Shown in pieces: positions 12,736 to 64,000 of a DNA stretch of 64,000 bases. The stretch's first letter is position 1. Every line of letters begins with the position of its first letter. The stretch lies in NCBI GenBank assembly GCA_026004595.1, contig BPJL01000006.1, forward strand, positions 12,299 through 76,298, read 5' to 3'. The position numbers were made by a program, and so were the translations under genes. The notes beneath the pieces were generated by a model. That model saw only the letters and a program-made list of their open reading frames with translations, made no database searches and was not told where the DNA came from. The stretch comes from Patescibacteria group bacterium (GTDB lineage Bacteria; Patescibacteriota; WWE3; UBA101185; UBA10185).

Positions 12736-12951
12736 ATGGCAATACTAAAGACAAGTCAAATAATAATCAGCATCCTTTTAGTTATTCTAATATTAATACA
12801 AACAAAAAATGCGGGATTGGCATCTGGGCTAAAAAACTCTTTTACGACCTACAGATCGCTGAGGGGAGTAGAGAAAGCGGTTTTTATTCTTACTGCGATA
12901 CTAGGTGTCGTTCTCGTAGTAAATTCCTTTCTGCTAATAACACTATCTTAA
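12736..12951 (+). CDS. secG: Preprotein translocase subunit SecG (probable)
   Basis: 71 aa, two TM helices, SecG-like LVILILIQTKNAGLASGL ... TYRSLRGVEKAVFILTAILGVVLVVNSFLL. Confidence 0.55.
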   Translation: MAILKTSQIIISILLVILILIQTKNAGLASGLKNSFTTYRSLRGVEKAVFILTAILGVVLVVNSFLLITLS

Positions 12952-49328: not shown

Positions 49329-51440
49329 ATGATACTCTGCCAAAGATGCGGAATAAGACCCGCCAAATATCCAATAAGCCAGATAATAGAAGGTAAACAG
49401 CTTCAGGTTGCCGTCTGCGAGGTTTGCTATCAAGAACTTCTTAAAGAAACGAACCAATCAGCATCTAAACTTGATAAATTTGGCCGAGATCTCACTCAGT
49501 TGGCTAGAGAAGGCAAGCTAGATCCCGTTATCGGTAGAAAAGAGGAAATAGAACGCGTAATTCACATTCTCTCCAGAAGGACAAAAAATAACCCCGTACT
49601 CATAGGAGATCCGGGAGTGGGAAAAACGGCTATAGTTGAAGGCTTGGCTCAGAGAATTGTGAATGGTCAGGTTCCCGAGCCCCTAAGGGGAAAAAGAGTT
49701 TTTATGTTAGATCTCGCTTCTATAGTGGCGGGAACTTCTCATCGGGGTATGTTTGAAGCTCGTTTGAAAGATGTAATAAATGAGGTTGTTTCGGCAAACG
49801 GCCAAATAATAATGTTTGTTGACGAGCTACATACTGTTATTGGGGCAGGAAGCGCCGAGGGTTCGATGGATGCAGCAAACATCCTTAAACCAGCGCTTGC
49901 AAGGGGTGAGCTTCAGATGGTGGGTGCAACCACAATTGATGAATACAGGAAGTATGTTGAAAGGGATGCCGCTCTTGAGCGCAGGTTTCAGCCAATAATG
50001 GTAAACGAGCCAACCCCAGAGGATACGATAGAAATATTGAAAGGGCTTAGAGAGAGATATGAAACTCACCATCGAGTGAAAATATCCGATGAAGCCATTG
50101 AGACCGCAGTAAAGATGAGCGACCGATATATCTCAGATAGATTTCTGCCTGATAAGGCAATAGATGTTATTGATGAAGCATGCGCTATGGTGCGTCTTTC
50201 GCAAATTAAGGAGCCCGAAAATCTAAGGACGGTTGAGCAGGAAATTGAAGCTCTAAGGGCCGCGGGCAGAAAAAATAAGCTAACACAAGAACAAAAAGAT
50301 GAGATAAGGAAAAAAACCGAAGAACTTGAAAAAATCCGAACCGAGCTTGCTGAGATTTGGACAAGAACGAAACTTGAGGATATCCCAGAAGTAACCGAAG
50401 AAGATGTTATAAAAGTTGTTTCAAGAGCTACCGGAATACCCCTTGAAAAGCTTAACATTGTTGAAAGGGAAAGGCTGTTAAAGCTGGAAGAAACAATAAA
50501 GAAAAGGGTTGTGGGTCAGGAGAAGGCCATAAGTGTTTTGTCAGAAGCTATAAGAAGAGCCAGGGCGGGTTTGAAAGATCCGAAGAGGCCGATCGGATCG
50601 TTTTTGTTCTTAGGCCCCACAGGTGTTGGTAAAACGGAGCTGGCAAAAGCGTTAGCCGAGGCGTTGTATGGGGACGAGGATATGATAATACGCTTGGATA
50701 TGAGCGAATACATGGAAAAGCACTCTGTAAGCAAGTTGATAGGGGCGCCCCCCGGATATATCGGATATGAGCAAGGTGGCCAGTTGACAGACGTAGTAAG
50801 AAGAAAGCCATTTTCGGTCATACTGCTTGATGAAATAGAAAAAGCACATCCTGACACTTTTAACGCTCTTCTGCAGATAATGGAAGATGGAAGACTGACT
50901 GACAGCAAAGGAAGAACGGTGGATTTCAAGAATACCATTCTGATTTTGACTTCGAACGTAGGATCTGACCTGTTGCGCAGAAAAGACATCGGATTTGAAG
51001 AAGGCAAGGTGAGAGCAGGAAGCGAAAAACAAACTTCTGAAGACAGAAGGATATTTTCAATACTCAAGGACTCCTTCAAACCCGAGTTTCTAAATAGAAT
51101 AGATGAGATAATAATTTTTACAAGTCTAACTAAAGAGGACATTAAAGAAATTGCCATAAGAATGATAGAGAAAACCAGAAAAATGCTTTCTGAGCAAAAT
51201 ATTCATTTGGAGGTTTCTGACAAAGCCTTAGATTATCTCGTGGAGAATGGATACAGTGATGAGTATGGAGCAAGGCCATTAAGACGGTTGATACAGAAAG
51301 AGGTTGAGAACACGATATCGGCAAAGATAATTAGCGGAGAAATATTAGAAGGCGATCTGGTGTATGTCGATGTTACAGAAGATGGGGGTTTAGCTGTAGA
51401 AGCAAGAAAGTCCGCTAAAGTCTCGTCCAGAAAGAAATAA
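49329..51440 (+). CDS. Clp-family double-AAA+ ATPase, ClpE/ClpC-like, with N-terminal C4 zinc ribbon
   Basis: CQRCG...CEVC zinc ribbon replaces the Clp N domains; AAA1 Walker [17 protein letters not shown]2 Walker [17 protein letters not shown]; an IGF tripeptide ([12 protein letters not shown]) resembles the ClpP-docking loop. Listed ORF starts at 49266 inside polA. Confidence 0.85.
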
Positions 51441-51478
51441 TTGAAATAGCGGCATTTATCTGCTATCCTAGCTCAGTT

Positions 51479-52009
51479 ATGGCCGACAATAATCAAGATA
51501 CAAATAAAAAAGATACCGACCAAAAGGAAGAACAGTCCGATCTAAAGGATGGGGAGCCGAAAGAAGGTGAAATGTCTGAAGAAGCATTAAAGGACGAAAC
51601 CCATGAAGAGCTAAAAGAAGACTCTGTGGAAGAAAGTTCGGAGGAAGGAACTATTGAAGAAGAGGTAGAAGAGGAGGTCAAAATGGCTGCGGATGAGCCT
51701 AGAATTCCCGATTTCAGGGTTGGTGATACGATTAGGGTTTTCTACAAAATAATTGAAGGGGACAAGATGAGGATTCAGCCGTTTGAGGGAATTGTCATCT
51801 CTTTTAGGGGCTCTGATGTTTCGAAAACATTTACTGTAAGGAGAATAGGGGCCGATCAGGTTGGAGTTGAGAGGATATTTCCCCTTTACACCCCAAATAT
51901 CGAGAGAATAAAAGTTGTTAAGAGGGGTAATGTGAGGAGGGCAAAACTTTACTATCTCAGAAAGAAAGTTGGAAGAGAAGCGATGAGGGTTCGGGAGCAT
52001 AAGAAGTAA
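51479..52009 (+). CDS. rplS: 50S ribosomal protein L19 with ~65-aa acidic N-terminal extension
   Basis: C-terminal 110 aa ([33 protein letters not shown]...[45 protein letters not shown]) is L19; the N-terminus is D/E/K-rich low complexity. Confidence 0.85.
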
Positions 52010-52213
52010 TTTTTCCAGTTAGCCCAGCAAACAAATAAAAATTGGCGCATAATTGTGTTGTTATTTTGGTATGTGCGCGATGAAACTATCTACTTTTGAA
52101 TCGTCATTCTAATATCTATCAATTGAGAGATAATAGAAACAGCATACGAACAGATTTGCAACGATTCGCGTTCATAGGTTAAATCGATATGGCTCGAAGA
52201 ACCGAACAACGAG

Positions 52214-52351
52214 ATGGCGGAGAAGAAAAAAGCTATACAAAAATTTGCAAACGAAGACATGAGGAGACAGATAGTGGAAAAACGATTGGATGGTGCACTA
52301 AAAGATTTTGAGGCCTTTAACCTTCTACAGAATAAATCACGAAAATTTTAA
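52214..52351 (+). CDS. Small (45 aa) helical protein, hypothetical
   Basis: MAEKKKAIQKFANEDMRRQIVEKRLDGALKDFEAFNLLQNKSRKF; in an AT-rich spacer; below the track cut-off. Confidence 0.25.
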   Translation: MAEKKKAIQKFANEDMRRQIVEKRLDGALKDFEAFNLLQNKSRKF

Positions 52352-52391
52352 TAAATGTTTTAGGTCAGGGTCCCAAGACTATATCCTATAG

Positions 52392-52420
52392 TTGTCAAAT
52401 TCCTGCCTTTGTGATAAGAT
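52392..52420 (+). promoter_or_regulatory. Sigma-70-like promoter (TTGTCA-17-TAAGAT) upstream of the 52458 operon
   Basis: TTGTCA at 52392-52397, 17-nt spacer, TAAGAT at 52415-52420, about 38 nt upstream of RBS AAGGAGGAG. Confidence 0.4.
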
Positions 52421-52457
52421 GCAAAAATCTTGAAAAATAAATAATAAAGGAGGAGAG

Positions 52458-52691
52458 ATGGAAGAGCTTGAAGAGTTGAAGGAAAAAATCAGGACTCGGC
52501 GCAAAGAAGAGGCCGAGATGCGTGCCGAAACAGCACGTATTATTTGGACGCGCTGGCGCAATATGCAAGGCCAGTGGCGGGATCGTACAAGGTGGGATGC
52601 CTTAAAAAGTAGTTTTATGGCAAACCCCACCCTCGCTCAAGCGTACCACTTGGTGCGTTTGATGCTGAAACCTGTCAAGCGCGAGGAGTAA
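52458..52691 (+). CDS. Small Arg/Trp-rich protein, hypothetical
   Basis: 77 aa, strong RBS AAGGAGGAG, translationally coupled to the following lipoprotein gene. Confidence 0.45.
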   Translation: MEELEELKEKIRTRRKEEAEMRAETARIIWTRWRNMQGQWRDRTRWDALKSSFMANPTLAQAYHLVRLMLKPVKREE

Positions 52692-52702
52692 GGGAGGTTA
52701 CA

Positions 52703-53551
52703 ATGAAGAAGTACTTAATTATCGTGTGTACATTAGTTCTCTTAGTAACTTCCTGCGGTCCTCTTCCCGAAATGGAAAGCATCATGGCGCAACCAAGGCC
52801 TGACGCCCCTGCGAGTGATTCAGGTAGTGAGGTTTCATTACCGGTTACACCAGGTCCTGAGGTTCACATCAGTCCCGAACCGGTTCCTGTACCTCCTCTT
52901 CCTGTAGCCACCCAGTATGCACTAATTGTGCAGGCCTGGGGAAACTATCTGACTCCGATCAAAGATACCATTAGATCTGAGGAGGATCTGAGGGAGGAGT
53001 GGCGGAGATTCGGGGAGATGAGTCTTCAGGTCGGAGACCGGAGGAGTAAAATCCGCGAAATCTTTGAAGGGTTCAGCGAAAACGACTGGTCCCAGATAAG
53101 AGAAGCAGGGGAAGAACTCGCAAAAGACGGCGCTCTAACCACAGCAGTAATTTATCTTAGGGGTTGCAAAACCACCTGCGCGTCAATATTTAGCGCACTA
53201 TGGTGGGCTTGCGCCCATCTGGCAACGGGAGAGAATTGGATTAAAATCCCTGAAGGGATGATGACCAACCACCCGATGCCGGAGTTATGTGGCAGGACAT
53301 TCAACTGGGAATACCTTGTCGATATCCTGGACACCAGATGCCCGGGGTATTCCGTTGAATATCGTGGATCGACGATCGTAATCCGCAAGTTAGTCCGTTA
53401 TTCAGATAACCGATACGAACTGACTTGGGACGACGCCCAAACCTTAATAGTGGTTGGCGGAGTTTTAACTGCGGCCACGGTTGTCGGAATTGTTGTATTA
53501 TCGGGCGGTACTGCGGCCCCCGCTTTTGCGGTAGTGCTTCTTGTACCGTAA
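52703..53551 (+). CDS. Lipoprotein with C-terminal TM anchor, hypothetical
   Basis: Lipobox LLVTSC; Pro-rich linker; C-terminal helix LIVVGGVLTAATVVGIVVLSGG; RBS GGGAGG. Confidence 0.6.
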   Translation: MKKYLIIVCTLVLLVTSCGPLPEMESIMAQPRPDAPASDSGSEVSLPVTPGPEVHISPEPVPVPPLPVATQYALIVQAWGNYLTPIKDTIRSEEDLREEWRRFGEMSLQVGDRRSKIREIFEGFSENDWSQIREAGEELAKDGALTTAVIYLRGCKTTCASIFSALWWACAHLATGENWIKIPEGMMTNHPMPELCGRTFNWEYLVDILDTRCPGYSVEYRGSTIVIRKLVRYSDNRYELTWDDAQTLIVVGGVLTAATVVGIVVLSGGTAAPAFAVVLLVP

Positions 53552-53569
53552 ATTATTTTTTTTTGGTAT

Positions 53570-53610
53570 AAGCCCGCTCTCACACATTGTTGTTAGGGTG
53601 GGCTTTTTTA
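53570..53610 (+). terminator. Rho-independent terminator
   Basis: AAGCCC (53570-53575) pairs with GGGCTT (53600-53605), followed by TTTTTA. Confidence 0.6.
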
Positions 53611-53689
53611 TTACTGTGAGTTTTTGAAAGTTCCGTCTGATTATCTGAGTGGATTATTAAAAACGTATGCAGCAGTTGTGGTTAATTTT

Positions 53690-53764
53690 TGGTGAGGGCG
53701 GTGGGGATCGAACCCACGACACGCGGCTTAAAAGGCCGCTGCTCTACCACTGAGCTACGCCCCC
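53690..53764 (-). tRNA. tRNA-Lys (anticodon TTT), CCA encoded
   Basis: Reverse complement: acceptor GGGGGCG/CGCCCTC (one G-U), D arm GCTC/GAGC, anticodon stem GCGGC/GCCGC with loop CTTTTAA, T arm GTGGG-TTCGATC-CCCAC, 75 nt. Confidence 0.85.
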
Positions 53765-53839
53765 TTAAAACTTTCACATTATACACAACAAAACCCTGCA
53801 GTTAAATGATAAAAGCTCAGAAGATAAATTTTAATAGTA

Positions 53840-54235
53840 TTAAGCAAGCTTTTCCAGTATTTGTTTTGTGGCGTTATTTACGTCGCTGAAAGTTATCCGA
53901 TCCGTGTAAGCTTTTGGTTCCTGCACGTCGTTCCTATAGACAAGAATTACTTTTTTACCCAAAAGTGAGGCGAGCACTTTCTCTATTGTGAGTCCCGTGC
54001 TTTTAACGTTGCTGGTGATGTAGGCAATAAAGACATCACTTTTTAGTATATTCCCAAAAATAGCAGGAAAGGTTTTCCATAGCGGAACCGAGCCCTCCCA
54101 TTTCTGTACGTCCCTTCCTAGTATAAAAGTCTGATGCCCACCACTTTCCAATCCTTCCGCCAACTGCAAAAGATCCCTGACGAGGGATTGCTTGTCTTCA
54201 ACTCGTGAGTATTTATAGCCTATAAAGAGCCGCAT
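53840..54235 (-). CDS. Hypothetical protein (possible nucleoside 2-deoxyribosyltransferase-like fold)
   Basis: 131 aa; MRLFIGYKY...HQTFILGRD...SDVFIAYI...GLTIEKVLASLLGKKVILV loosely fits the flavodoxin-like NDT pattern. Weak. Confidence 0.4.
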   Translation of the reverse strand: MRLFIGYKYSRVEDKQSLVRDLLQLAEGLESGGHQTFILGRDVQKWEGSVPLWKTFPAIFGNILKSDVFIAYITSNVKSTGLTIEKVLASLLGKKVILVYRNDVQEPKAYTDRITFSDVNNATKQILEKLA

Positions 54236-54319
54236 ATAAACAATATTAGCACTTCTGAAAAAAGATTACCTGGTCTGTAAACTGATGGACCTAGTTGATT
54301 TTAGCAAACTTGTTGGCTA

Positions 54320-55642
54320 CTAACTTTTTGTAACAAAACTAACGATATCACCTGCTGGGACGCTGTTCTGTTCGCCCGTTTCCATATCCTTGACGGTAAT
54401 CCTTTTATTTTTAACTTCATCCTCACCGATTATGGCCACAAATCTCACCCCGGATTTTGAGGCGATGCTTAATTTCTTTTTAAGACCCTCACCTGTGTAT
54501 AAAACATCAGCCTGTATATTGCTTTTTCTAAGATTAGCTACTAAGTCGTAAGCCAGATTTGTGTAATCTCCTAAAGGAATAACTAAAACTTTCAAAGTCT
54601 GGCGGTCAGTATATTTAAGAAGGTTATTTTCTTTCAACAGGTCAAAAAGTCTAGTGAGTCCTATCGAAATTCCCGTTCCTGGCAGTTTTTTATCTGAAAA
54701 GTACTCTGCAAGATTGTTGTATCTACCTCCTCCACAAATGGATCCGAACTCCGGATACTCAGTCAATACTATCTCAAATATTGTTCCGGTATAATAGTCA
54801 AGACCCCTGGCTATGGATAGATCTATGGTCCAGCATGATTTAGGTATATTCATATAACCTATGTTTTTAACTAGATCTTCGATTTCTTTCACCCCCTCAT
54901 CAAACGTATCGTTTGCAACATTTAACGATTTTAGTTTTTTTAGCACATCTGCTACCGACCCCGCGGAATTTATAAAATCAAGAATTTTTTCCGTCTGGTT
55001 TATATTTACACCCATTTTTTCAAAATCTTTAGCAACCATTTCTTCGCCGATTTTTTGTACCTTATCTATCTCTCGTAGGATTTCTTTTGTTTTTTTATTG
55101 AGTCCGAGTTTTTCAATGTAGCCGGTTAGTAGTTTTCTGTTGTTGATCTTTATTAAGAAGCTACCTAAGTTAAGTCGTTCAAAAGTGGTGTAGGCGGTTG
55201 CAACTATCTCGGCATCGTAGATGGGAGCTAAACTGTCCTTATCGATTATGTCCACGTCACATTGGTAAAATTCCCTGAACCGCCCTTTTTGAGGACGTTC
55301 CCCGCGAAACACTTTACCTATTTGATATCTTTTAAAAGGGAAAGACAGCTCGTTGTACCTTTGGCTTACATATCTCGCAAGGGGAACCGTAAAATCAAAC
55401 CTCAATGCCATTTCGCTGTCACCTTTTTTGAAGGTGTATATCTGCTTTTCGGCTTCCTTCCCGCTTTTTGCCAACAAAATATCAGCTTTTTCAAGCACAG
55501 GGGTATCTAACGGTAAGAAACCGCACAATTCAAAGCTTTCCCGTATGGAGTCCAACATTTTGTTAAATATAACCTGGTCGCGAGGTAGTAGTTCCATAAA
55601 ACCGGGAAGTATTGTGGGTTTTATAAAAGTTTTTTCAACCAT
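54320..55642 (-). CDS. hisS: Histidyl-tRNA synthetase
   Basis: Class II motifs: GFLPLDTPVLE (motif 1), RYQIGKVFRGERPQKGRFREFYQCDVD (motif 2), C-terminal anticodon-binding domain. Confidence 0.9.
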   Translation of the reverse strand: MVEKTFIKPTILPGFMELLPRDQVIFNKMLDSIRESFELCGFLPLDTPVLEKADILLAKSGKEAEKQIYTFKKGDSEMALRFDFTVPLARYVSQRYNELSFPFKRYQIGKVFRGERPQKGRFREFYQCDVDIIDKDSLAPIYDAEIVATAYTTFERLNLGSFLIKINNRKLLTGYIEKLGLNKKTKEILREIDKVQKIGEEMVAKDFEKMGVNINQTEKILDFINSAGSVADVLKKLKSLNVANDTFDEGVKEIEDLVKNIGYMNIPKSCWTIDLSIARGLDYYTGTIFEIVLTEYPEFGSICGGGRYNNLAEYFSDKKLPGTGISIGLTRLFDLLKENNLLKYTDRQTLKVLVIPLGDYTNLAYDLVANLRKSNIQADVLYTGEGLKKKLSIASKSGVRFVAIIGEDEVKNKRITVKDMETGEQNSVPAGDIVSFVTKS

Positions 55643-56078
55643 AGCTTACCAATTTTACCGCAGTATTGCTTTTGCATAAAGTTTATTTGAGCAAAATCAA
55701 AACTAGTGGTTATGAGCTTTTTTAATCAAACTTGGTTTTTACCTCTAAATTTGGTGGTACTGCTGGAAAAATTTTATTTGGTATCAGGATTGTAGGCGAA
55801 GATGGTAATTTTATAGTTGTGGTTGCAGCCTTCTTCCGGATGACCGCAGGGTACGCAGCTTCAGCTGGGTTTTTTATGCTAGGCTATCGTTGGGTTTTCA
55901 GAAAAAAAGGAAAATCTTATATGGTATGATAGGTTGTTTGCCACCAAGGCTTAAAGCATAGAAAGCCCTTTTTGGGAAATTTTGTTTCTGTTTTTATATA
56001 GCTTCAGTTTTGCAGCTTCCTTATCTATATACATATTTACTGTAATTAGATTTTTGTATTAAAAACCCTTTTTGATAT

Positions 56079-56106
56079 TGACAAATCAATCCTTAATGAT
56101 TAAATT
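56079..56106 (+). promoter_or_regulatory. Candidate sigma-70-like promoter (TTGACA-17-TAAATT)
   Basis: TTGACA at 56079-56084, 17-nt spacer, TAAATT at 56101-56106, in AT-rich DNA about 300 nt upstream of the 56407 gene. Confidence 0.3.
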
Positions 56107-56406
56107 ACTCTACTTATAGGTTAGGGGAGTACAAGATATAGACTTATAGTAATGTGTGCGTTTGAGTGTTGTTGCTACACACAATCGGAGATTCATATAA
56201 ACTTTGTTCTAGTGTTTTTGCCCTTCTGCCGAAAAGATATTTCATAACAGATTTGGGAGTTTTTTTCAGCCTTCGGAGAGTATGTACTAAAATATATGGG
56301 TCCTTGGTATTTGCATGAGGTTGTGTGCGGAGTGTTTTTGTTTGAAAGTATTCCGGGCACAGGCTCAATAAAGCCAACCTAAATAAATATTGAAAGGAGA
56401 GCTGTT

Positions 56407-56706
56407 ATGGTCAAGAGCCACGTCAGCCGGGATCCGGGTATATTTGAGCTGATAAACAGAAACCTGCGATTGGTGCTTAAGTTGTTAAAGGACAAACGTG
56501 TTCCTTTTCTTCTTAAGCTTTTACCAATAATAGGTGGAGTGTGGCTAATTTACCCCGACCTTATCCCGGGACCGCTGGACGATGTTTTGGTTATCTACCT
56601 CACGTTTTATGGTTTCATTGAACTGGCTCCGGATGAAGTTGTAAAAGAACTTCGTAAGGAAGTTAGTCATGGAAAGGAAAACGTGATAGAAGGCGACATC
56701 GACTAG
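56407..56706 (+). CDS. DUF1232 (YkvA-like) membrane protein
   Basis: RVPFLLKLLPIIGGVWLIYPDLIPGPLDDVLVIYLTFYG matches the DUF1232 core; RBS GAAAGGAG. Confidence 0.55.
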   Translation: MVKSHVSRDPGIFELINRNLRLVLKLLKDKRVPFLLKLLPIIGGVWLIYPDLIPGPLDDVLVIYLTFYGFIELAPDEVVKELRKEVSHGKENVIEGDID

Positions 56707-56712
56707 CTACCA

Positions 56713-56750
56713 AGAGAGAGCTTTTATATTCAAAAACAAAAGCTCTCTCT
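56713..56750 (+). terminator. Terminator-like perfect 13-bp hairpin
   Basis: AGAGAGAGCTTTT (56713-56725) pairs with AAAAGCTCTCTCT (56738-56750); no clear U-tract. Confidence 0.45.
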
Positions 56751-56818
56751 GTATCCTTAGGAATTTTGGATCTTGATCATTTTGTTTGTCCGTCCCGGCC
56801 ACTTGCGCCGTGCGGATG

Positions 56819-56929
56819 TACTTTGAAAACACAACAAGAAAGAGGTGGTTGCCCTACTTAGGTTTGCACCTTCGAGACTTTCAGCATGCTGGAAGTTTTG
56901 CAGGTGCGTAGCCTAATAAGAGGCAGCCA
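56819..56929 (+). promoter_or_regulatory. Repeated leader element, copy 1 (box A, box B, hairpin, box C)
   Basis: Box A 56819-56842, box B GGTTGCCCTACTTAGGTTTGCACC, hairpin GCACCT (56866-56871) / AGGTGC (56902-56907), box C GGTGCGTAGCCTAATAAGAGGCAGC. Same architecture as copy 3. Confidence 0.55.
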
Positions 56930-57023
56930 TATCAATAAGTGAAAGGAGTAAAAAATTGGAAAATACCTGTTTCCTAGTTTCGAATTGCCAGTAAGTCAAC
57001 CATTGAATAAAACGGAGGTAAAA

Positions 57024-57281
57024 ATGCAAACGTTAGTTAGCAACATAATTTTTTTGAGTGTGCTGGTATTCGCAGCAGCTTTGGTGATCTTTGGATTGCT
57101 GAAGTTCATCAAGGTACTTAAAGGAGAGCTCTCTGTAGGTGAGGCTCTGATGGCCATAGGCGGTGTGGTAATCGGTGCAGCAGTTGTAATATGGGCTGCG
57201 ACCGATTTCAACGGGAGCAGGATCATAATCGATACGGTTGGAAAGTGGATCATCCAGATTCTAACCGAGCCCCTAGGCTAG
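57024..57281 (+). CDS. Small 2-TM protein (VirB2/TrbC pilin-like topology)
   Basis: 86 aa from the ATG after RBS AACGGAGG: hydrophobic leader (IIFLSVLVFAAALVIFGLL), charged loop, second hydrophobic segment (ALMAIGGVVIGAAVVIWAA). Listed ORF begins at 56985. Confidence 0.5.
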   Translation: MQTLVSNIIFLSVLVFAAALVIFGLLKFIKVLKGELSVGEALMAIGGVVIGAAVVIWAATDFNGSRIIIDTVGKWIIQILTEPLG

Positions 57282-57288
57282 GTTAGCT

Positions 57289-58869
57289 ATGAAGACAGCT
57301 GCTGTTCCAACAATCCTGGTGGGCGCTCTTCTGCTTACTGGATGTGCGGAAAAACCGGATAATCTGGAGGTGTTTTTTGATTGGCGGCAAAAATTCTTTT
57401 TGCATGTTGATCAACAGACGGTAGAGCCTTGGGTAGGGCCGGTTTTAAGGCTAGCGGTAGCAGTAGCCTTAGTTCTTTGCTTACTGGTGTTGATACACAA
57501 CCTGAAAAGTGAAAGGCCTATCTGGGGTTATAATTTCATCACAGGTCTCTCAATTTTTGTAGCGATCGCTTTAGTGTATTTTTACATCCCCGCAGCTACA
57601 GCTTTTGGTGAGGCCATAATGCCCCCAGAATTAACGCTTGATAGGGTTTTTTCAGCTCTAAGGTTAGGGTTGGACGGAGGTTTGGCTGACTTGCTTGTAG
57701 GAGGCTGGGCTATAACCTTTACACTCGTTCTCCCGCTCTTTTCGGCTTTTTGGGAAATAATGATGTTGTTGGGTGCCGTTGTTGCTCTAATAGCAACAAC
57801 TTTAGCAAGAAGCATGAAAGGTATCGTTTACATTGTAACGCAGGTGTATGGATGGGGATCTTTCCTTGTTCTTTACAACACCTTAATATCGTTGATCGAC
57901 CGTTACTATCCTACATGGGATTATATGCCTGTAAAGATATTTGTAACGGCGTTCTATGTAATGGTATCTGTCACATTGCTTCTTTTTTGCTACATTGGAA
58001 TACCCTTCTTTGCAATCTCCCTCGTGCCGAGATCAGATGACGAATACAAATCATCTGGAAAGAAAAGGGAGGAAAGAATACGGGACTCCAAAGTGGATTG
58101 GGGGACTATTTTTGCTCCCATACCCATACCCAACGACTCGCCGGACGATGAGCCTGATCAAGATCGATACCATAGTAACGACAATTACGATGATGAGGAT
58201 CCTTCAGATGGTAGTATAAATCCCCAACTACCCCGGGGTCCGAGTGGTGGTGGATTGGGAGAGGTTATCGAAGCACATAAAGGAGATATCCCACCGACTA
58301 AAGTTTCTCGTTCGGAAACTTCGGAAACTAGTAATGGCGATGAACCTGATCCCAATAAAATACTTTTATCGAAAAGTTCGAGATTGGGTTCCAACATTGA
58401 ACACAAAGATTCCAGAGTTTCCGAAGAGGTTGTTGATTCTGTTGAGAACTTCCCTTCGAGTAAAGTTAAACAATTAAAAAGCTTGGAGAGTGGTTCCCGA
58501 TCTGCGGAAACAAGTCGTCCTAACCGGAACAATGGAGATTCCAACCGCCTGGAAATAGATGTCAAAAAAGACAAGCTAAAGAAAGATAAGGCCCACGTAG
58601 AATTTCTGGACAAAACCGGCAAAGTTTTGGAGGTCGTGGGTGTTGTTACCGCATCTCCTAAAGTCGTAATTTTCGGCAAGGGTGTTGAGTTAGCAGCCGA
58701 TGTGTTGGACCGTGCTACGGAAGAAGGTGCAGATACAAAGAAGGTTTTGGATCATTCTGCCAAAGAAGTAGCCAAACGGGTTTTGCGAAACAAATACCCA
58801 GACTTGGTAGAATTTGCAGTCGGCAAGGACGATCGGGACGAAAACAAGCTTAACATGGAAGGAGGGTAG
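57289..58869 (+). CDS. Polytopic membrane lipoprotein with long acidic/Ser-rich disordered C-terminal domain (VirB6-like architecture)
   Basis: Lipobox LLLTGC, about 6 TM helices, then ~270 aa low-complexity D/E/S/K/P-rich tail. Confidence 0.6.
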   Translation: MKTAAVPTILVGALLLTGCAEKPDNLEVFFDWRQKFFLHVDQQTVEPWVGPVLRLAVAVALVLCLLVLIHNLKSERPIWGYNFITGLSIFVAIALVYFYIPAATAFGEAIMPPELTLDRVFSALRLGLDGGLADLLVGGWAITFTLVLPLFSAFWEIMMLLGAVVALIATTLARSMKGIVYIVTQVYGWGSFLVLYNTLISLIDRYYPTWDYMPVKIFVTAFYVMVSVTLLLFCYIGIPFFAISLVPRSDDEYKSSGKKREERIRDSKVDWGTIFAPIPIPNDSPDDEPDQDRYHSNDNYDDEDPSDGSINPQLPRGPSGGGLGEVIEAHKGDIPPTKVSRSETSETSNGDEPDPNKILLSKSSRLGSNIEHKDSRVSEEVVDSVENFPSSKVKQLKSLESGSRSAETSRPNRNNGDSNRLEIDVKKDKLKKDKAHVEFLDKTGKVLEVVGVVTASPKVVIFGKGVELAADVLDRATEEGADTKKVLDHSAKEVAKRVLRNKYPDLVEFAVGKDDRDENKLNMEGG

Positions 58870-58870
58870 T

Positions 58871-59182
58871 ATGAGTCCCTTTTCCTTTCTTGGTGACAGT
58901 AAGATGAGATCGATCAGATATAAACTGTTCGATCATTCTTACACTATCCTGCCGGTTTGGGGTGTGATCGGAATCTTATTTGTTTCCGGTCTGTTTCTTT
59001 ATTTCGGCGGGCTCCGTTGGGTATGCCATGGTACTTCGGGAATAGTTTTTGTTTGGGTAGTTTTCACTCTGCTCAATAAAGTCCTGAAAGCTCGGGCATA
59101 CAAAAAAATCAGCGAAAAGAGCAGACGTGACCAATCCGAGGTAGTTGTTACCTACCTTTCGGATCCCCCGTACCGCTCCTAG
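58871..59182 (+). CDS. Small 2-TM membrane protein (VirB3-like size and topology), immediately upstream of the ATPase
   Basis: 103 aa from the ATG after RBS GGAGGG; helices ILPVWGVIGILFVSGLFLYFGGL and GIVFVWVVFTLL; basic C-terminus. Listed ORF begins at 58814. Confidence 0.5.
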   Translation: MSPFSFLGDSKMRSIRYKLFDHSYTILPVWGVIGILFVSGLFLYFGGLRWVCHGTSGIVFVWVVFTLLNKVLKARAYKKISEKSRRDQSEVVVTYLSDPPYRS

Positions 59183-59191
59183 AAACTTGAA

Positions 59192-59227
59192 AGGATAGGG
59201 TTTTTCCCCAACCCTATCCTTTTCTCT
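59192..59227 (+). terminator. Rho-independent terminator
   Basis: AGGATAGGGTT (59192-59202) pairs with AACCCTATCCT (59210-59220), followed by TTTCTCTC. Confidence 0.6.
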
Positions 59228-59349
59228 CTTTCTTGTTGTGGCTCTTTTTGAGTTTTCAATATATTTGATTATTCAAAAAGAGGGTACGAGAAACAAATAA
59301 TTTGCAAAAACATCATAGATGTTGGCACTTTGAAAACACAACAAGAAAG
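59225..59349 (+). promoter_or_regulatory. Repeated leader element, copy 2 (partial: 16-mer TCTCTTTCTTGTTGTG plus box A only)
   Basis: 16-mer at 59225-59240, identical to 62821-62836. Box A ACTTTGAAAACACAACAAGAAAG at 59327-59349, identical to copy 1. Confidence 0.5.
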
Positions 59350-59476
59350 CTAAGAAGAGATTATGTTTTTGTTGAGCAGGGCACCTAAAAGAGCCTGAAC
59401 ACTGTCGGGTTCTTTTGGGTGTCATGCTCAATCAGGGCTTGAACATAATAACTAAATCAATAAGAAAGGAGTTGAG

Positions 59477-61417
59477 ATGGATCTGAAAAAACTTTTATTT
59501 CCGGGAACAGATGCAAGATTGTTACCTGAATCCTCCGTGTTTTTAAACGCGGTAACCAGGGAAGAGACAATTAGTGCTCGAGAGCTCCTTGGTGTGACGA
59601 TCCACCCCGTAAAGGGAGGTGCTGCTGGTGTCAGAAGTACGAATGGAGGTGCTACGCGTGTAATCGCATATCACCAAAGCTCTAAATTCACCGATGGCAG
59701 CGGTTTGGATATACGGCAGGCTTACAAGTACACTTCTAACTTAACAATGTTGCTTAGGCTGGTTAAGCACTACCCCGCCTCTTTTGTAAGGCATGTTCAG
59801 AACGAAAAGGATGGTGAAAAAACAGCCCGTACCGAATTTCTCGATGATGTCATGGAGTGGGCACTTCCTCGGAAAGGAAAGATTAGCGGTCATGATCTGT
59901 TACTTTGGGGAGATTTAGGAGCAATCATTCCCGAAAATAGGGAAGAGACGGCATCGTTACATGGAAAGATTGTTTCTTATCTTCAAGCCGCGTCTGTACT
60001 TCGGAGTGTAATTTTAAGTACCCCAATGTCTCTGGAAGATGCAAAGTACGACTTGATCACAAAAAGCTATGATGCAGTTTGGTATGCTGCACCCAGAAAA
60101 GTGTTTTGGTACCCTGATTTTTATTCGCTACCGGACTCTAATTTGGCATACGCTTTTTGGAGTGGTGTGGTATCTCCTGAGAATATCCGTGAACTAATGG
60201 ATATGGGAGATATACTGCTCTACACGGAGGTGGTCGAGGGTTATCTTTACGCGACCGCTATACTTCGTGTGGTAGTGCCGATTAGAAACGGAACTGCTGA
60301 CTTTTCCTCTGAAACCTCCCAGCTGATGAAACTGGGCAAATGGGAGAGGCGGACAGGTGCGGATCTGAAAAAAGCATTTCAGGCCTTTGTTCCAGGAAGT
60401 GCACCACCTCCGGCATGGGACAGGCACTCAGTACACAAGCCGAACTACGTTCTGTCGGCCATTCAAAAGTCTCTAAAGAATGTTGGGGATAAGAACGGAG
60501 ATACTATGAGCGGTTTCATAGATGACGAGCCGTTCTTTCTCAACAACCAGCTTCGTCCCAGTCGTATCTACTTAGGGCCCAGCAAAGTGGGAAAGTCTAC
60601 CCTTGCTGCAGCACACGTTTTGCAAACCAATGGCTGTAGGGTCATATGGATGCCACTGACAGCGGGTCAATTTGAATCCGCACCCCATTGGGTAGAAAGA
60701 TTCGAAGGAACTGTAATAAACTTAAATCTTCCGGATGCATATACACTTCATAGACAAAACGATAAGCAAAACGGAACCAGGCCTACACGTGTCGATATGG
60801 TGGCCAAACAAGAGGAGTTGCACGTTGAGGACAAAGAAGCGGCCGAAAAGACAGTAGCAAAGCTGGAGGCTGAGTGGTATCAGCGGGGTAAGATTGTAGG
60901 GTTGCCGCTTACGTTTCGTGTTAAGTCAGGCGACACTGTACGATTGCTGAACTGGTACAACCATTTCTTAACTGCTATGAGGGAGGCCTGGAAAAGGTGG
61001 TACGAGCTTACCGGAGAACTTGCCACCATCGTTGCAGACAATTTCAGTGCGTTGAAATTATCGGACAACGACCCCTTGTTAGGTGAATTGCCTGCGGCAA
61101 TAGGGGAGAATCTAGGACTAAACCTAGCTTGGTTGGTATCTAACGGTCGAAATATTGGCCTTTCATGCTGGATTACGACTCATAGCAAGGAAGATCTTGA
61201 TCATATAAGCACCGGCCTATTCAACCAGTTTGGATTGTGCTTCAACCTCAAACACAATGATTTCACTTTTTGTGAGGTCAGCCAGCCGAAAGATCGAGAT
61301 GTTTTGGTACCAAAGCTCTATATAAAGCTTCCTTATCCCATCAAACGCGTTGTTGAAAGACGCGAGCCGAACCTGGATGAACTGCCGTGGACGCAAAAAG
61401 AAGTTTCCGCGGACTGA
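59477..61417 (+). CDS. FtsK/HerA/VirB4-like P-loop NTPase (divergent)
   Basis: Walker A GPSKVGKST (60575-60601), then CRVIWMPLTAGQFE (the hhhhD-x-x-GE-Y spacing seen in VirB4/HerA/FtsK ATPases). Walker B-like TIVADNF (DN not DE) and arginine-finger/TQ-like LSCWITTHS. No TM; RBS AAAGGAG. Confidence 0.6.
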   Translation: MDLKKLLFPGTDARLLPESSVFLNAVTREETISARELLGVTIHPVKGGAAGVRSTNGGATRVIAYHQSSKFTDGSGLDIRQAYKYTSNLTMLLRLVKHYPASFVRHVQNEKDGEKTARTEFLDDVMEWALPRKGKISGHDLLLWGDLGAIIPENREETASLHGKIVSYLQAASVLRSVILSTPMSLEDAKYDLITKSYDAVWYAAPRKVFWYPDFYSLPDSNLAYAFWSGVVSPENIRELMDMGDILLYTEVVEGYLYATAILRVVVPIRNGTADFSSETSQLMKLGKWERRTGADLKKAFQAFVPGSAPPPAWDRHSVHKPNYVLSAIQKSLKNVGDKNGDTMSGFIDDEPFFLNNQLRPSRIYLGPSKVGKSTLAAAHVLQTNGCRVIWMPLTAGQFESAPHWVERFEGTVINLNLPDAYTLHRQNDKQNGTRPTRVDMVAKQEELHVEDKEAAEKTVAKLEAEWYQRGKIVGLPLTFRVKSGDTVRLLNWYNHFLTAMREAWKRWYELTGELATIVADNFSALKLSDNDPLLGELPAAIGENLGLNLAWLVSNGRNIGLSCWITTHSKEDLDHISTGLFNQFGLCFNLKHNDFTFCEVSQPKDRDVLVPKLYIKLPYPIKRVVERREPNLDELPWTQKEVSAD

Positions 61418-62767
61418 TAGGGTGTGCCATTATCCCCGGCATCCCAATAATGCTTGTGATCTGCTTATTAAGTCTGATCCTAGCATTGGGATACATGCAC
61501 GATACAGACCCTAAGGCATACAACGAATACATCGGAGATGTCTTGGGTCTGTCCGGGGGGACTTGGTACACCCTCACACCGGACGATGAAGAGCTAATTC
61601 TGGAACTGGGATTTGATCCGGCGGTTGTAGCCAACGAAATTATGGCCAACCGCTGGATCAATGAAAATGGCGGAGAGATAGACCTTGGTATTCAGTTGGC
61701 CATTTTGGAAGGAGAGTCCAAGGCGGGAAAAAACATGGGAACATGCAACGGATTACTTTCCGCTGCGAAATTTTCAAGGCAGGAGGTAGAAGCAGCAGAG
61801 TGGTTGTTAAGACGCTGGAGCGCAGCCGGAATACGAGACTGGTCAGAAATTGCACGGAAAATGGTTACGCCTGACTACAGTGACTACACAGCACACTGTT
61901 CAGCCGGCGAGATAGGACCTAACGGTATTCTTCCGTCGACAGGTGTCACTATATGTAAGTATGGGCTTTCAGAGCACCCTAACCCATTGGTGCGTTCCTG
62001 CAATTTTTTTGATGAAAGGGTTGCGCCTTATGGAAAAAATTGGTGGTTAAAAGCTATCGGATACAAATCCACAGCTTCAAAATCCGATAATTTTGAAGCT
62101 CTGTACGGTTGGAACCATAGCGAGTTCTATAGGACACAGTTGCTCGAAAAAGCTGATTATTACAATAGTTTTTTTCGACAATTGGAAAGGGAATCCACAG
62201 GAAAACGAAATATATGTTTTCAAAGGAACATTGTTGCAAAGTATCGCAGTCAAATTCCTGAAATATGTCGGTCTTCTGTCGGCAGAGGTTTACGCTGCGG
62301 GTCCTGACGAGGGCGCTGGAGAAGCCTTGCCCATTGATGGTTTCGTCCACCCTTACCCCGGGGGTTTTCTTTGTGGATATGGTTTCGGAGTCCCTGTTGC
62401 GAATGGTATTCACTGGGGGGTAGACCTGTGTTTTGGTTCTCCTTGGAAATCCGCTCCCATCTACGCGATGCACTCCGGTAAAGTTGCCTTTGCAAGGTAT
62501 CTTTCCCCCAGCGAACCATTAGCGGGACAATGGTGGATTTCCGGAAATGTAATCGTGATTGAAGGAAAAGATGCTTCCGGAAATACAATCTGGACAGCTT
62601 ACGGCCACGGCCTTAACGGTAGTATGGAAGTTGAGGTCGGAGATGTTGTAGAGAAAGGCCAGAAGATCATGATGTCGGGGTCAACAGGCTTTTCTTCGGG
62701 TATTCACCTTCACCTGGCTATGAAAGTTAACGGTCGGTGGGTGAACCCCGCAACATACCTAAAATAA
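61387..62767 (+). pseudogene. Membrane-anchored bifunctional peptidoglycan hydrolase (SLT-like lytic transglycosylase plus M23 peptidase), interrupted by a +1 frameshift (pieces 61387-62307 and 62093-62767; probable site T7 run 62169-62175)
   Basis: Piece 1: TM (IIPGIPIMLVICLLSLILALGY), SLT-like ILEGESKAGKNMGTCNGLL (Glu-Ser catalytic pair). Piece 2 (+1 frame): M23 motifs HWGVD, YGHG, GIHLHLAM. Confidence 0.7.
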
Positions 62768-62948
62768 GGGCGATTGATGAAAGCAGATTTTTCTCTTTCC
62801 AGTCGCCCTATCTCTAAATTTCTCTTTCTTGTTGTGTAAGCGCAAGGATTTATATTTTATGAATTTTTACGCTTCGGTTTCAGATAGATTTTTTTTGGAA
62901 CCGCTATAAATACAAACTGCCCCCTGCTTTATTAATAAGGAGAAAGGC

Positions 62949-63048
62949 ACTTTGAGAACAAAACAAGATAGATAGGTTGCCTTTAGGTACGTACCCGCAA
63001 GGCTTTTACTAGAAGTTTTACGGGTGCGTAGCCTAATAATAGGCAGCT
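62949..63048 (+). promoter_or_regulatory. Repeated leader element, copy 3 (box A variant, box B, hairpin with compensatory changes, box C)
   Basis: Box A ACTTTGAGAACAAAACAAGATAG at 62949-62971, box B GGTTGCCTTTAGGTACGTACC, hairpin GTACCCG (62991-62997) / CGGGTGC (63021-63027), box C GGTGCGTAGCCTAATAATAGGCAGC. Confidence 0.55.
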
Positions 63049-63083
63049 ATAAATAGGAAATATAAAAAAGAAAGGAGGATGGA

Positions 63084-64000
63084 GTGAATAAAGGATTTGC
63101 TGCGGTATTGCTGCTCTTTCTTGTACTATGTGGCACATTGGGTTTTGTAGTTTTTGGGTTGAATATTGTGGGAAGAGCGGACGTGCTCAAAAGCCTAGTA
63201 CTACCTGATGTAAAGAGTATCTTGACGGTATGTACCACAATGGTTGTAATAATAATTACATCCCAGGTTCTTTCATTTTGGGTTGCAAGGCTTGGGAAAA
63301 GTGTTGTCCACAGCTATTTTGACCGAAGGTGGCTCCCTAAAGAGAACAATAGTGAATCGTACACAACCTCATACGGAGAACGGCTCGAAAAAGTTGTATT
63401 ACCTAGTTATCTTGGAACAACGGTTTGGGATCTTGCCGCGCACACCTTTCCGTCAATGTTCGTTGTCAGCTTAATTGCAAGTATCGCGGTTTATGTGATT
63501 CTAACTGTAGCGGGTATTGGCGCTTTTCAGGTTTGGGTTATCTTGACCCTACTCATTCTAGCTTGTAATTTCATACTCGTCCCTGTCACGTATTGGATTA
63601 AGGAGTGGAAAAGGAAATATACAAAGTTCATCATATTTTCCTTCAATGTCATATACATTGGTGTAAAAACACCGATTCTTGCTTTGTTTTTCTGGAAGGG
63701 GAGCTTGCCGCAGAAGAGCAGAACTCCAATTACAGAAGTTTTGGAAATACAAATGTCGGCCGATCCCCAGCAATTCAAAGAGGAGTATCGTACCTCCTGG
63801 CTTAGGGACCAATGGACATCAATACTATCCAGGCGAGTAGGTTTGCGGACAATCTTTCTAAGAAGCCGCAGTAATAAAGCGGAGGATATCATTCTTTGGA
63901 TCGATAACGGTCCGGCGATAGATAAAATCCTTCGAAATCTTAGCGAAAAGGCTTTGAGGTCTCAATTGGGGGCTGGTCTAATTGCTCAAACTGTGGCCAA
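63084..64000 (+). CDS. Polytopic membrane protein (at least 6 TM), partial; VirB6/TcpH-like by context only
   Basis: Open frame (frame 0) from GTG 63084, 5 nt after RBS AAAGGAGG, to the window end with no stop (traced codon by codon). Hydrophobic helices (FAAVLLLFLVLCGTLGFVVFGL, ILTVCTTMVVIIITSQVLSFWVA, FVVSLIASIAVYVILTVAGIGAF, VWVILTLLILACNFILV). Missed by the ATG-based ORF track. Confidence 0.5.
   Translation, partial: MNKGFAAVLLLFLVLCGTLGFVVFGLNIVGRADVLKSLVLPDVKSILTVCTTMVVIIITSQVLSFWVARLGKSVVHSYFDRRWLPKENNSESYTTSYGERLEKVVLPSYLGTTVWDLAAHTFPSMFVVSLIASIAVYVILTVAGIGAFQVWVILTLLILACNFILVPVTYWIKEWKRKYTKFIIFSFNVIYIGVKTPILALFFWKGSLPQKSRTPITEVLEIQMSADPQQFKEEYRTSWLRDQWTSILSRRVGLRTIFLRSRSNKAEDIILWIDNGPAIDKILRNLSEKALRSQLGAGLIAQTVA

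Follow-up and report, generated by a model that had tools for sequence, protein, structure and literature searches.

Why do the same short sequences stand in front of successive gene groups of one locus, and what might they do once transcribed? The question is raised by a window of 64,000 nucleotides (nt; the whole stretch of DNA analysed here) from contig BPJL01000006.1 of a Patescibacteria group bacterium that belongs to the candidate phyla radiation (CPR), in which a locus resembling a type IV secretion system (T4SS) encodes a VirB4-like ATPase, an M23 hydrolase and membrane proteins. An earlier note on this DNA had pointed out three copies of leader boxes between positions 56,819 and 63,048 and had suggested that a functional RNA structure acts there in cis, as a leader, attenuator or processing site, and coordinates the locus. 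Hairpin covariation in 12 related genomes now supports this suggestion, and there is strong comparative support for reading the repeated boxes as conserved functional RNA signals before each gene block. As to what these signals do, we see about an even chance that antitermination and long-range processing or clamping in the style of ribosomal RNA (rRNA, rrn) operons are applied here to the mRNAs of a CPR T4SS-like locus.

Repeated modules and their rod hairpins

The comparison covers 12 distinct genomes, obtained as contigs encoding homologues of the VirB4-like protein and as loci from genome and metagenome scans; the named members of this set belong to candidate division WWE3 of the CPR, and individual genomes are cited by labels such as L004. 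Gene order is kept in all 12 and runs from hisS (minus strand) through genes for an RDD protein and for proteins of 85, about 500 and about 100 amino acids (aa) to the VirB4-like gene, the M23 hydrolase gene (about 460 aa), a gene of about 400 aa and an ATP-synt_ab ATPase gene. The intergenic regions before the 85-aa gene, the VirB4-like gene, the ~400-aa gene and the ATPase gene are referred to as IG1, IG2, IG3 and IG4, respectively.

The first of the boxes, box A (ACTTTGAAAACACAACAAGAAAG), is indeed identical at 56820-56842 and 59327-59349. A variant is present at 62949-62971, as had been described, with three mismatches and not four. Box A did not occur in 100 shuffles of the window, and the 64 kb contain no fourth copy. 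It consists of two parts, a 12-mer, G[CU]ACUUURAMAA, at the 5' side and the strand CACAACAAGAAAG at the 3' side. The 5' half is kept as G[CT]AC[TCA]TT[GA]A[AC]AA in IG1, IG2 and IG3 of all 12 genomes, even in genomes and at sites where the adjoining strand has decayed. The CACAACAAGAAAG strand is near-invariant in IG1 and IG2 and decayed in IG3 of seven of the ten genomes, and its reverse complement, CUUUCUUGUUGUG, lies 2.4 and 3.5 kb further downstream, where the same gene block ends. Each internal block is preceded by a module that comprises a boxB-like hairpin, the BoxA-like 12-mer and a strand complementary to the far end of the block. The earlier note had not seen that box A is a separate module, made of a BoxA-like element and one strand of a kilobase-range helix, that inverted partners exist, or that the second copy has a hairpin. 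Its box C is exact at 56903-56927 and 63023-63047, shared by copies 1 and 3 as it had said, within a common stretch of 43 nt that is 88% identical.

A promoter reading of box A was rejected: GGCAC-N5 is not accompanied by the TTGC of a sigma-54 site, TTGAAA is not followed by a -10 element 17 nt downstream as in a sigma-70 site, and the sequence upstream is a variable hairpin. Scanning viral contigs for BoxA plus stem gave seven matches in three unrelated contexts, none after GCAC and none with an inverted partner in the DNA examined; the BoxA matches were judged by eye to be coding sequence and were taken as chance. A literature search for the 12-mer returned unrelated primers only. In L004, a further BoxA-like site, GCACCTTAACA, and a match to the rod hairpin described below (926-1021, E = 0.009) lie at 828-1021 before an extra upstream gene block, so that loci differ in how many modules they have.

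Each module is followed by a rod-like hairpin of about 85 nt. The stems GCACCT/AGGTGC of copy 1 and GTACCCG/CGGGTGC of copy 3, and loops ending in GAAGTTTT(G/A)C, are present as originally described, and rod hairpin 1 encloses boxes B and C together with the hairpin between them. When the leaders were folded and aligned, as had been proposed, RNAalifold predicted the same long hairpin for nine IG1 and nine IG3 leaders, with 14 and 11 pairs, respectively, changed on both sides. The rod was specified as P1, an internal loop with a conserved AAUAAG on its 3' side, P2, and P3 with an extension. In the IG1 orthologues it pairs 86.8% of cells, compared with 31-48% for slid partners; 17 pairs are double-changed, and no shuffle reaches its score.

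A covariance model built only from the IG1 (copy-1) orthologues detects the leaders of IG2 and IG3 in all genomes and several of those of IG4, so that the proposed search for further copies with pairing-preserving covariation was successful in the relatives. In the window this model finds exactly three sense sites, at 56842-56939 (80.3 bits), 59357-59452 (42.5 bits, E = 4.6e-8) and 62969-63059 (51.2 bits, E = 1.9e-10), plus one antisense echo of site 1. Because the model knows nothing but IG1, its match at 59357-59452 indicates that copy 2 has the same hairpin element; copies 1 and 3 do share a hairpin, but it is not restricted to them as had been thought. Over 40 distinct leader copies, 86.9% of cells are paired, compared with about 43% for slid partners, and 29 of 32 pairs are double-changed, in an alignment that leans towards structure because the model guided its fitting. 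P1/P2 have a rival in a small alternative hairpin, GCCU-AAUAAG-AGGC, which the covariation likewise allows. Taken together, the ~85-nt rod is a new structured RNA motif with good support.

The rod leads into an A-rich spacer and a Shine-Dalgarno (SD) sequence with no U tract. An attenuator or riboswitch with a leader terminator was rejected, as no terminator-like site with a U tract lies between BoxA and the start codons. That no known riboswitch class is involved, as had been judged by eye, agrees with Rfam, which at the gathering threshold returned only the tRNAs of the window and, in a permissive search of 56600-63200, only chance miRNA models with E values of at least 0.65. The 85-aa gene has its own SD downstream of a short open reading frame (ORF) listed in Table 1; in IG1 of the relatives an SD is likewise followed by a short ORF of variable sequence and length that sometimes overlaps the next start.

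Complementarity across kilobases

The inverted copies of the box A strand (inv) each sit just past the hairpin that closes the preceding gene block, and two pairings can be considered for them, either locally, with the box A that follows about 100 nt downstream, or over a distance, with the one 2.4 or 3.5 kb upstream at the start of the same block. The strands are named A1 to A3 for IG1 to IG3 and inv2 to inv4 for IG2 to IG4. In the window, the A1:inv2 duplex has -28.6 kcal/mol, compared with -15.0 +/- 3.4 for random windows, and the A2:inv3 duplex has -25.5 kcal/mol, compared with -10.4 +/- 2.6; the mean of the A(n):inv(n+1) duplexes across genomes is -24.9 kcal/mol. In nine of ten genomes inv2 prefers A1 over the nearby A2, as in L005 with -27.1 versus -15.3 kcal/mol. 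The 13-bp core is almost fully paired in 21 operon-flanking pairs, and three further positions are paired through AU, UA and GC types, positions that stay mostly unpaired if pairing is assumed within the same region. The covariation score of the 21 pairs is 0.177 versus 0.089 for shuffled pairs, and none of 500 shuffles was as high.

Individual substitutions are compensated in the distant partner. A2 CAgCA occurs with inv3 UGcUG in L005 (A-U to G-C), A2 CAgGA with inv3 UCcUG in L006, and A1 AGuAAG with inv2 CUUaCU in L016 (A-U to U-A); in L007 all A and inv copies have changed together. The flanks are specific for the partners, with AGAGA/UCUCU in one helix versus AGU/ACU in the other, and GGG/CCC in L004. 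inv3 is kept in every genome though the local A3 has decayed in seven of ten. L004 alone has an inv4, and there A3 is intact and extended (AAAGGG/CCCUUU); in IG4 of the window genome A3 has no partner, the best duplex (-16.7 kcal/mol) being no better than 15% of random windows; the 3' partner is thus absent where the 5' strand has decayed. Energies, flanks, partner-only compensation, the conservation of inv3 and the restriction of inv4 to L004 lead us to conclude that operon-flanking pairing fits these sequences better than pairing within one intergenic region. The latter, an inverton-like or local stem, does occur in folds of minimum free energy (MFE) and was rejected because it fits the covariation and the decayed A3 less well. 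Complementary strands with compensated changes flank a transcribed block, as they do in an rRNA-type processing stem.

The same data bear on explanations at the DNA level, by which the 13-mer would be an operator for a DNA-binding regulator, or the repeats would be recombination sites or mobile-element ends around gene cassettes. Such sites would suit the near-invariant core in both orientations and the inverted repeats that bracket a segment of about 100 bp in IG2 and IG3, like invertible promoters. They are difficult to reconcile with partner-specific flanks, with substitutions confined to partner sites (A2/inv3 in L005 and L006, A1/inv2 in L016) and with the loss of the 3' partner exactly where the 5' strand decayed. 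Moreover, L023 has a U.G wobble in the helix that works on the sense RNA only, because the antisense strand would have an A.C mismatch. Invertons and mobile-element ends were rejected, since gene order and orientation beside hisS are identical in 12 genomes, no recombinase is found in the locus, and the covariation links A(n) with inv(n+1) instead of the two repeats that enclose the 100-bp segment. The earlier note had named remnants of a duplicated mobile-element end as a possible refutation, which does not apply to a chromosomal locus that is syntenic beside hisS in all relatives. An integrative or conjugative element at a tRNA gene was rejected as well, because the adjoining 440-aa gene is hisS and not an integrase gene, and because of the synteny in all relatives. 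DNA-level explanations are unlikely, and we consider their chance to be very small.

A serious rival is long-range, riboswitch-like control of termination. Here, inv and a following U tract would be the 3' half of an inter-operon terminator, for which an additional A-like copy (pseudo-A), the upstream A together with BoxA-1, and the downstream A would compete; the winning partner would set whether the polymerase stops or continues, and the BoxA-like sequence would be mainly a pairing partner or mimic instead of a Nus site. In line with this, in 8 of 11 genomes BoxA-1 and the U tract that follows inv2 prolong the A1:inv2 complementarity beyond a bulge of 4 nt. A pseudo-A lies just upstream of inv2 in L005, L006, L016, L017 and L021, forming a hairpin of -18 to -26 kcal/mol that is followed by (C)UCUUUUUAAA. 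This hairpin looks like an intrinsic terminator and suggests a switch or terminator rather than a plain processing stem. In L016, pseudo-A, A1 and inv2 all have the same lineage-specific substitution. A further hairpin, H1, has the U tract after inv2 as its 5' arm and a mimic of BoxA as its 3' arm, and local folds also pair inv(n) with A(n). Since inv2 and its U tract can pair either locally or with BoxA-1 and A1, the arrangement looks like a switch.

However, pseudo-A is absent in the window genome, L001, L004, L014, L023 and L007, and inv3 has neither a following U tract nor an extension into BoxA. The BoxA of IG3 is conserved though nothing pairs with it, which argues that BoxA is under a constraint of its own. 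In addition, a strand competing for the 3' half of a terminator would be kinetically disfavoured unless it is tethered, and tethering would lead back to a Nus-type model. We therefore assign termination control of this kind a rather low probability. The pseudo-A copies are located at 9728-9775 in L005 and at 9762-9810 in L016.

A BoxA-like element in a probable single transcription unit

The published BoxA consensus is GYTCTTTAANA (PMC5725501). Most copies of the 12-mer agree with this E. coli-derived consensus at 9-10 of 11 positions, with a mismatch at position 3 (A) and in some copies at position 8, and the consensus of the host lineage may differ. BoxA is known to vary with phylogenetic distance (PMC7665894). 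The IG1 copy of L016, GCTCTTTAAAA, matches at all 11 positions. We take the mycoplasma sequence GTTCTTTGAAAAC to be a conserved spacer BoxA. The IG1 copy of the window, GTACTTTGAAAAC, is close to this sequence, which has served as a primer for 16S-23S spacers of mycoplasmas (PMC4312986). A hairpin of non-conserved sequence ends 0-5 nt upstream of the 12-mer in 27 of 32 cases. In rrn operons the order is boxB hairpin, boxA and boxC (PMC8632103), and the locus has the same order of boxB-like hairpin, BoxA-like element and long-range-pairing strand. No description of BoxA in CPR bacteria was found in a literature search.

The modules appear to lie within a single transcription unit. Of the 11 genomes scanned, 9 have a near-invariant TTGACA-N17-TAAAT(A/T) site that precedes the first BoxA by 150-880 nt (none is reported for L004 and L017); in IG2 and IG3, no site of the sigma-70 type recurs among the relatives scanned. 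The internal blocks close with hairpins that have short or interrupted U tracts; the one at the end of sub-operon 1 is kept in the relatives as GGAUAGGG...CCCUAUCC. The strongest canonical terminators, with stems of 13-15 bp and long U tracts, come after the last gene of the locus, past the window. With the sole conserved promoter upstream, none recurrent in IG2 or IG3 and the strongest terminators last, we infer that the ~10-kb locus would be transcribed as one RNA that reads through the internal hairpins. Such read-through is a setting in which processive antitermination is useful.

The promoter is followed by a long 5' leader (window 56107-56406; L005 7128-7360) that opens with a conserved hairpin, ACUUAUGGG...CCCAUAGU in the relatives, with no match in Rfam. 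An extra small ORF precedes the first BoxA in the window (99 aa, 56407-56706), L006, L014 and L023, and a box C-like sequence, GGCUCAAUAAAGCC, stands directly before the SD of the 99-aa ORF.

An alternative to the single transcript is that each sub-operon has its own unrecognised promoter and yields a separate mRNA, whose ends A:inv would join into a 5'-3' panhandle for protection or translation control; the 12-mer would then have nothing to do with Nus and be a lineage-specific site that is promoter-proximal or is recognised by an RNase or an RNA-binding protein. Terminator-like hairpins close each block as this would require, the long-range complementarity and covariation support it equally strongly, and position 3 of the 12-mer deviates from known BoxA. 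There are also precedents for pairing between mRNA ends, namely icaR of Staphylococcus aureus and the fbi/tac pairing of hok mRNA. The icaR duplex is a substrate of RNase III, and in icaR and hok single genes are involved, in which the pairing targets the SD or a translation activator. The locus resembles the icaR pairing of 3' and 5' untranslated regions (UTRs) and hok fbi/tac in that the 5' end of an mRNA pairs with the 3' end. It differs in that the SD is not involved and the helix brackets polycistronic blocks of 2.4-3.5 kb and is coupled to a BoxA-like element. Against panhandles of separate mRNAs, inv comes only after the terminator-like hairpin, at a distance of up to 130 nt in L004, so that a terminated transcript would lack it. 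IG2 and IG3 have no recurrent sigma-70-like site, as described above, and the promoter upstream is almost unchanged between genomes; the stretch directly before the 12-mer is a variable hairpin with no conserved -35 or -10 element; and the 12-mer matches BoxA at 9-11 of 11 positions. Nus-independent panhandles deserve to be taken seriously, though we think them improbable.

Among known systems, the rrn operons come closest. There, an RNase III site arises when boxC pairs with a sequence 3' of 16S, and the Nus complex, which keeps the 5' element at the polymerase, is thought to 'deliver' boxC (PMC8632103). As in the nut-like sites of rrn operons, the modules combine a hairpin, a linear BoxA-like 12-mer and a strand that pairs kilobases away beyond the 3' end of the block, and like the rrn leader and spacer they are repeated before successive blocks of what is probably one transcription unit. 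Unlike in rrn operons, the blocks are protein-coding sub-operons of a secretion-like machine and are separated by terminator-like hairpins, BoxA has an A at position 3, the stem strand abuts BoxA and is nearly invariant, and each module is followed by the extra ~85-nt rod and an SD; Nus dependence is here only putative. To our reading, such an rrn-type arrangement of antitermination and processing was not previously described for protein-coding genes.

Outside rRNA, BoxA is known from the suhB 5' UTR of E. coli and Salmonella and from the leaders of CRISPR arrays (Baniulyte 2017, PMC5725501; Stringer 2020, PMC7665894). These cases share with the locus a BoxA-like leader of a long non-rRNA transcript and a presumed role in sustaining transcription, but in them BoxA stands alone, modules are not repeated and long-range helices at the flanks are lacking, and they act against Rho. 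In the phage lambda pL leader, a hairpin sensitive to RNase III lies between nutL and the start codon of N, so that nut site, long irregular hairpin and ribosome-binding site (RBS) come in the same order as here. In lambda, boxB comes after boxA and is bound by the N protein, kilobase-range pairing is lacking and the site occurs once; here, in contrast, the module stands once per sub-operon and includes such pairing. HK022 put, RfaH/ops and LoaP leaders are processive antitermination elements inside long operons. The EAR RNA of B. subtilis is a further case (mentioned in PMC8632103). As with these, cis elements would here allow a long operon that encodes a cell-envelope machine to be transcribed past its internal terminators, but sequence and structure are unrelated, and Rfam, which covers some such families, gave no match.

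The favoured explanation, rrn-style antitermination coupled to long-range processing or clamping, can be laid out as a series of steps. NusB/NusE-type factors would load onto BoxA and make the RNA polymerase resistant to the terminator-like hairpins between blocks. The factors would hold the 5' strand tethered until its 3' partner emerges 2.4 or 3.5 kb later. The resulting duplex of 14-17 bp (helix 1 up to about 24 bp) could be an RNase III-type processing site or an end-to-end clamp, and in either case may define and protect separate sub-operon mRNAs. The rod with its AAUAAG internal loop would come to lie at the mature 5' end before the RBS, as a 5' stabiliser or as a second site for processing or protein binding. 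A more specific version, in which Nus-type factors deliver the tethered 5' strands so that sub-operon mRNAs are excised or clamped as for rRNA, and pseudo-A and the BoxA-like arm of H1 switch how far transcription proceeds, is offered tentatively.

Several points weigh against the rrn-style explanation. To our knowledge, position 3 is U in every characterised BoxA, in place of the A found here. BoxA-1 is also able to pair with the U tract after inv2, and its conservation in IG1 may for this reason be partly structural. The 13-nt core is almost invariant, beyond what pairing alone needs, and both the terminator-like pseudo-A hairpin and the fitted nature of the 40-copy alignment belong on the same side. 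E. coli rrn antitermination targets mainly Rho and not intrinsic terminators. No nusB, rnc, nusG, rpsJ (S10) or bona fide rho gene was found among the 20 proteins scanned in the window (about 8% of the genome) or in the locus DNA of the relatives (a small fraction of each genome), the one match being to the distant Rho/FliI-like ATPase of the locus itself, and there is no rRNA in the window or in the seven longest related loci scanned. Finally, the sample consists of 12 genomes, several of them closely related.

Table 1. Positions of modules, helix strands and transcription signals in the window (ORF, open reading frame; SD, Shine-Dalgarno sequence)
Feature	Position	Strand	Remarks
Sigma-70-type promoter-like site, TTGACA-17 nt-TAAATT	56078..56106	+	10/12 scan matches
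Hairpin after 99-aa ORF, no U tract	56713..56750	+	inverted repeat of 18 nt, 89% complementary; similar in L006
Variable boxB-like hairpin before BoxA-1	56788..56817	+	-13.2 kcal/mol; 0 nt from the G of BoxA
BoxA-like element 1, GUACUUUGAAAA	56818..56829	+	kept in IG1-IG3 of all relatives
A1, 5' strand of putative helix 1, CACAACAAGAAAGAG	56830..56844	+	15/15 complementary to 59226-59240
Predicted leader rod hairpin 1 (P1 GGUUGCC/GGCAGCC, P2 UUAGGU/GCCUAA, P3 GCACCU.../...AGGUGC)	56847..56927	+	MFE -69.6 kcal/mol, z = -6.7
SD GAAAGGAG and 12-codon ORF (TTG at 56956, 7 nt after SD) before the 85-aa gene at 57024	56941..56994	+	read from sequence
Terminator-like hairpin, end of sub-operon 1	59189..59223	+	14-bp stem and U-rich tail
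inv2, 3' strand of putative helix 1, CUCUUUCUUGUUGUG	59226..59240	+	reverse-complement match, covariation
Hairpin H1, 5' arm U tract GCUCUUUUUGAG, 3' arm BoxA-like	59241..59282	+	inverted repeat, fold
BoxB-like hairpin 2, AACAUCAUAGAUGUU	59309..59323	+	fold
BoxA-like element 2, GCACUUUGAAAA	59325..59336	+	box A copy 2, conserved
A2, 5' strand of putative helix 2, ACACAACAAGAAAG	59336..59349	+	14/14 complementary to 62824-62837
Predicted leader rod hairpin 2 (P1 UUAUGUU/AACAUAA, P2 UUGAGCA/UGCUCAA, P3 GGGCACC/GGGUGUC)	59361..59448	+	model match, fold
Hairpin after M23 hydrolase gene, end of sub-operon 2	62768..62808	+	fold; UUUUCUCUYUC..UCGCCC kept in relatives
inv3, 3' strand of putative helix 2, CUCUUUCUUGUUGUGU	62822..62837	+	kept in all genomes
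BoxA-like element 3, GCACUUUGAGAA	62947..62958	+	box A copy 3, conserved
A3, decayed 5' strand, ACAAAACAAGAUAG	62958..62971	+	2 mismatches to core
Predicted leader rod hairpin 3	62975..63048	+	followed by SD 63070-63078 and GTG 63084

The secretion-like locus and its possible regulation

The 646-aa protein encoded at 59477-61417 has seven homologues only in a search of 5.8 billion proteins, and a profile search added none; the VirB4-like proteins of the relatives share 33-56% identity. It has no Pfam match and no PDB match by sequence. Its AlphaFold model (predicted local distance difference test, pLDDT, 73.7) has as best PDB match TrwK/VirB4 of R388 (E = 9.6e-11, probability 1.0), and the neighbouring gene encodes an M23 hydrolase according to Pfam; the other downstream genes have nearly no Pfam matches. 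By its modelled fold, the protein would provide the VirB4-family ATPase expected of a type IV secretion locus. A chromosomal, relaxase-less T4SS has been described for Patescibacteria (PMC12102498). Because the same gene order beside hisS is found in every relative, we consider the locus to be a core chromosomal T4SS-like locus of this kind and not a mobile element.

The hydrolase gene (61387-62767) contains one T too many in a run of seven (62167-62175), which breaks it into frames of 306 and 224 aa. A second assembly of the same organism (L029) has six T and an intact gene of 458 aa, as have all relatives an intact gene, and the extra T probably reflects homopolymer variation or a mistake in assembly. 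The last gene of the locus (L028 15049-16413, about 570 nt past the end of the window; L005 14958-16280) encodes an ATP-synt_ab ATPase of 440-454 aa. Its nearest families are Rho and FliI/SctN; it scores 80 bits for Rho, with cut-offs of 315-628, shares about 27% identity with the E. coli Rho core and is without the RNA-binding domain of Rho. A Rho-like hexameric motor is an unusual companion for a VirB4 system.

The relatives have a ~400-aa gene and an RDD gene between hisS and the promoter; in the window (55650-56077) the former and most of the latter are missing, with an RDD remnant of 65 aa at 55732-55929. Compared with L028 (Ga0246236_1000002, a JGI contig with an identical VirB4-like protein), positions 49477-64000 of the window have a few small indels, by which the coordinate offset drifts from 49476 to 49481, so that the window differs slightly from the L028 copy. 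In L007, the most divergent genome, about 115 nt covering inv and the region next to it are nearly identical between IG2 and IG3 (9034-9150 and 12786-12900), which suggests a recent duplication or gene conversion between intergenic regions.

BoxA/Nus antitermination with kilobase-range processing stems has been regarded as a speciality of rRNA operons, with few exceptions that have a single BoxA. If the explanation favoured here is true, co-transcriptional 'delivery' would be a general tool for making defined mRNAs from long transcripts. Being short and nearly invariant, the elements lend themselves to tests in vitro and to searches of metatranscriptomes. The T4SS-like system of Patescibacteria is widespread and relaxase-less, and its regulation was not addressed in the work describing it (PMC12102498). 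The modules would be the first candidate regulatory signal for this chromosomal system.

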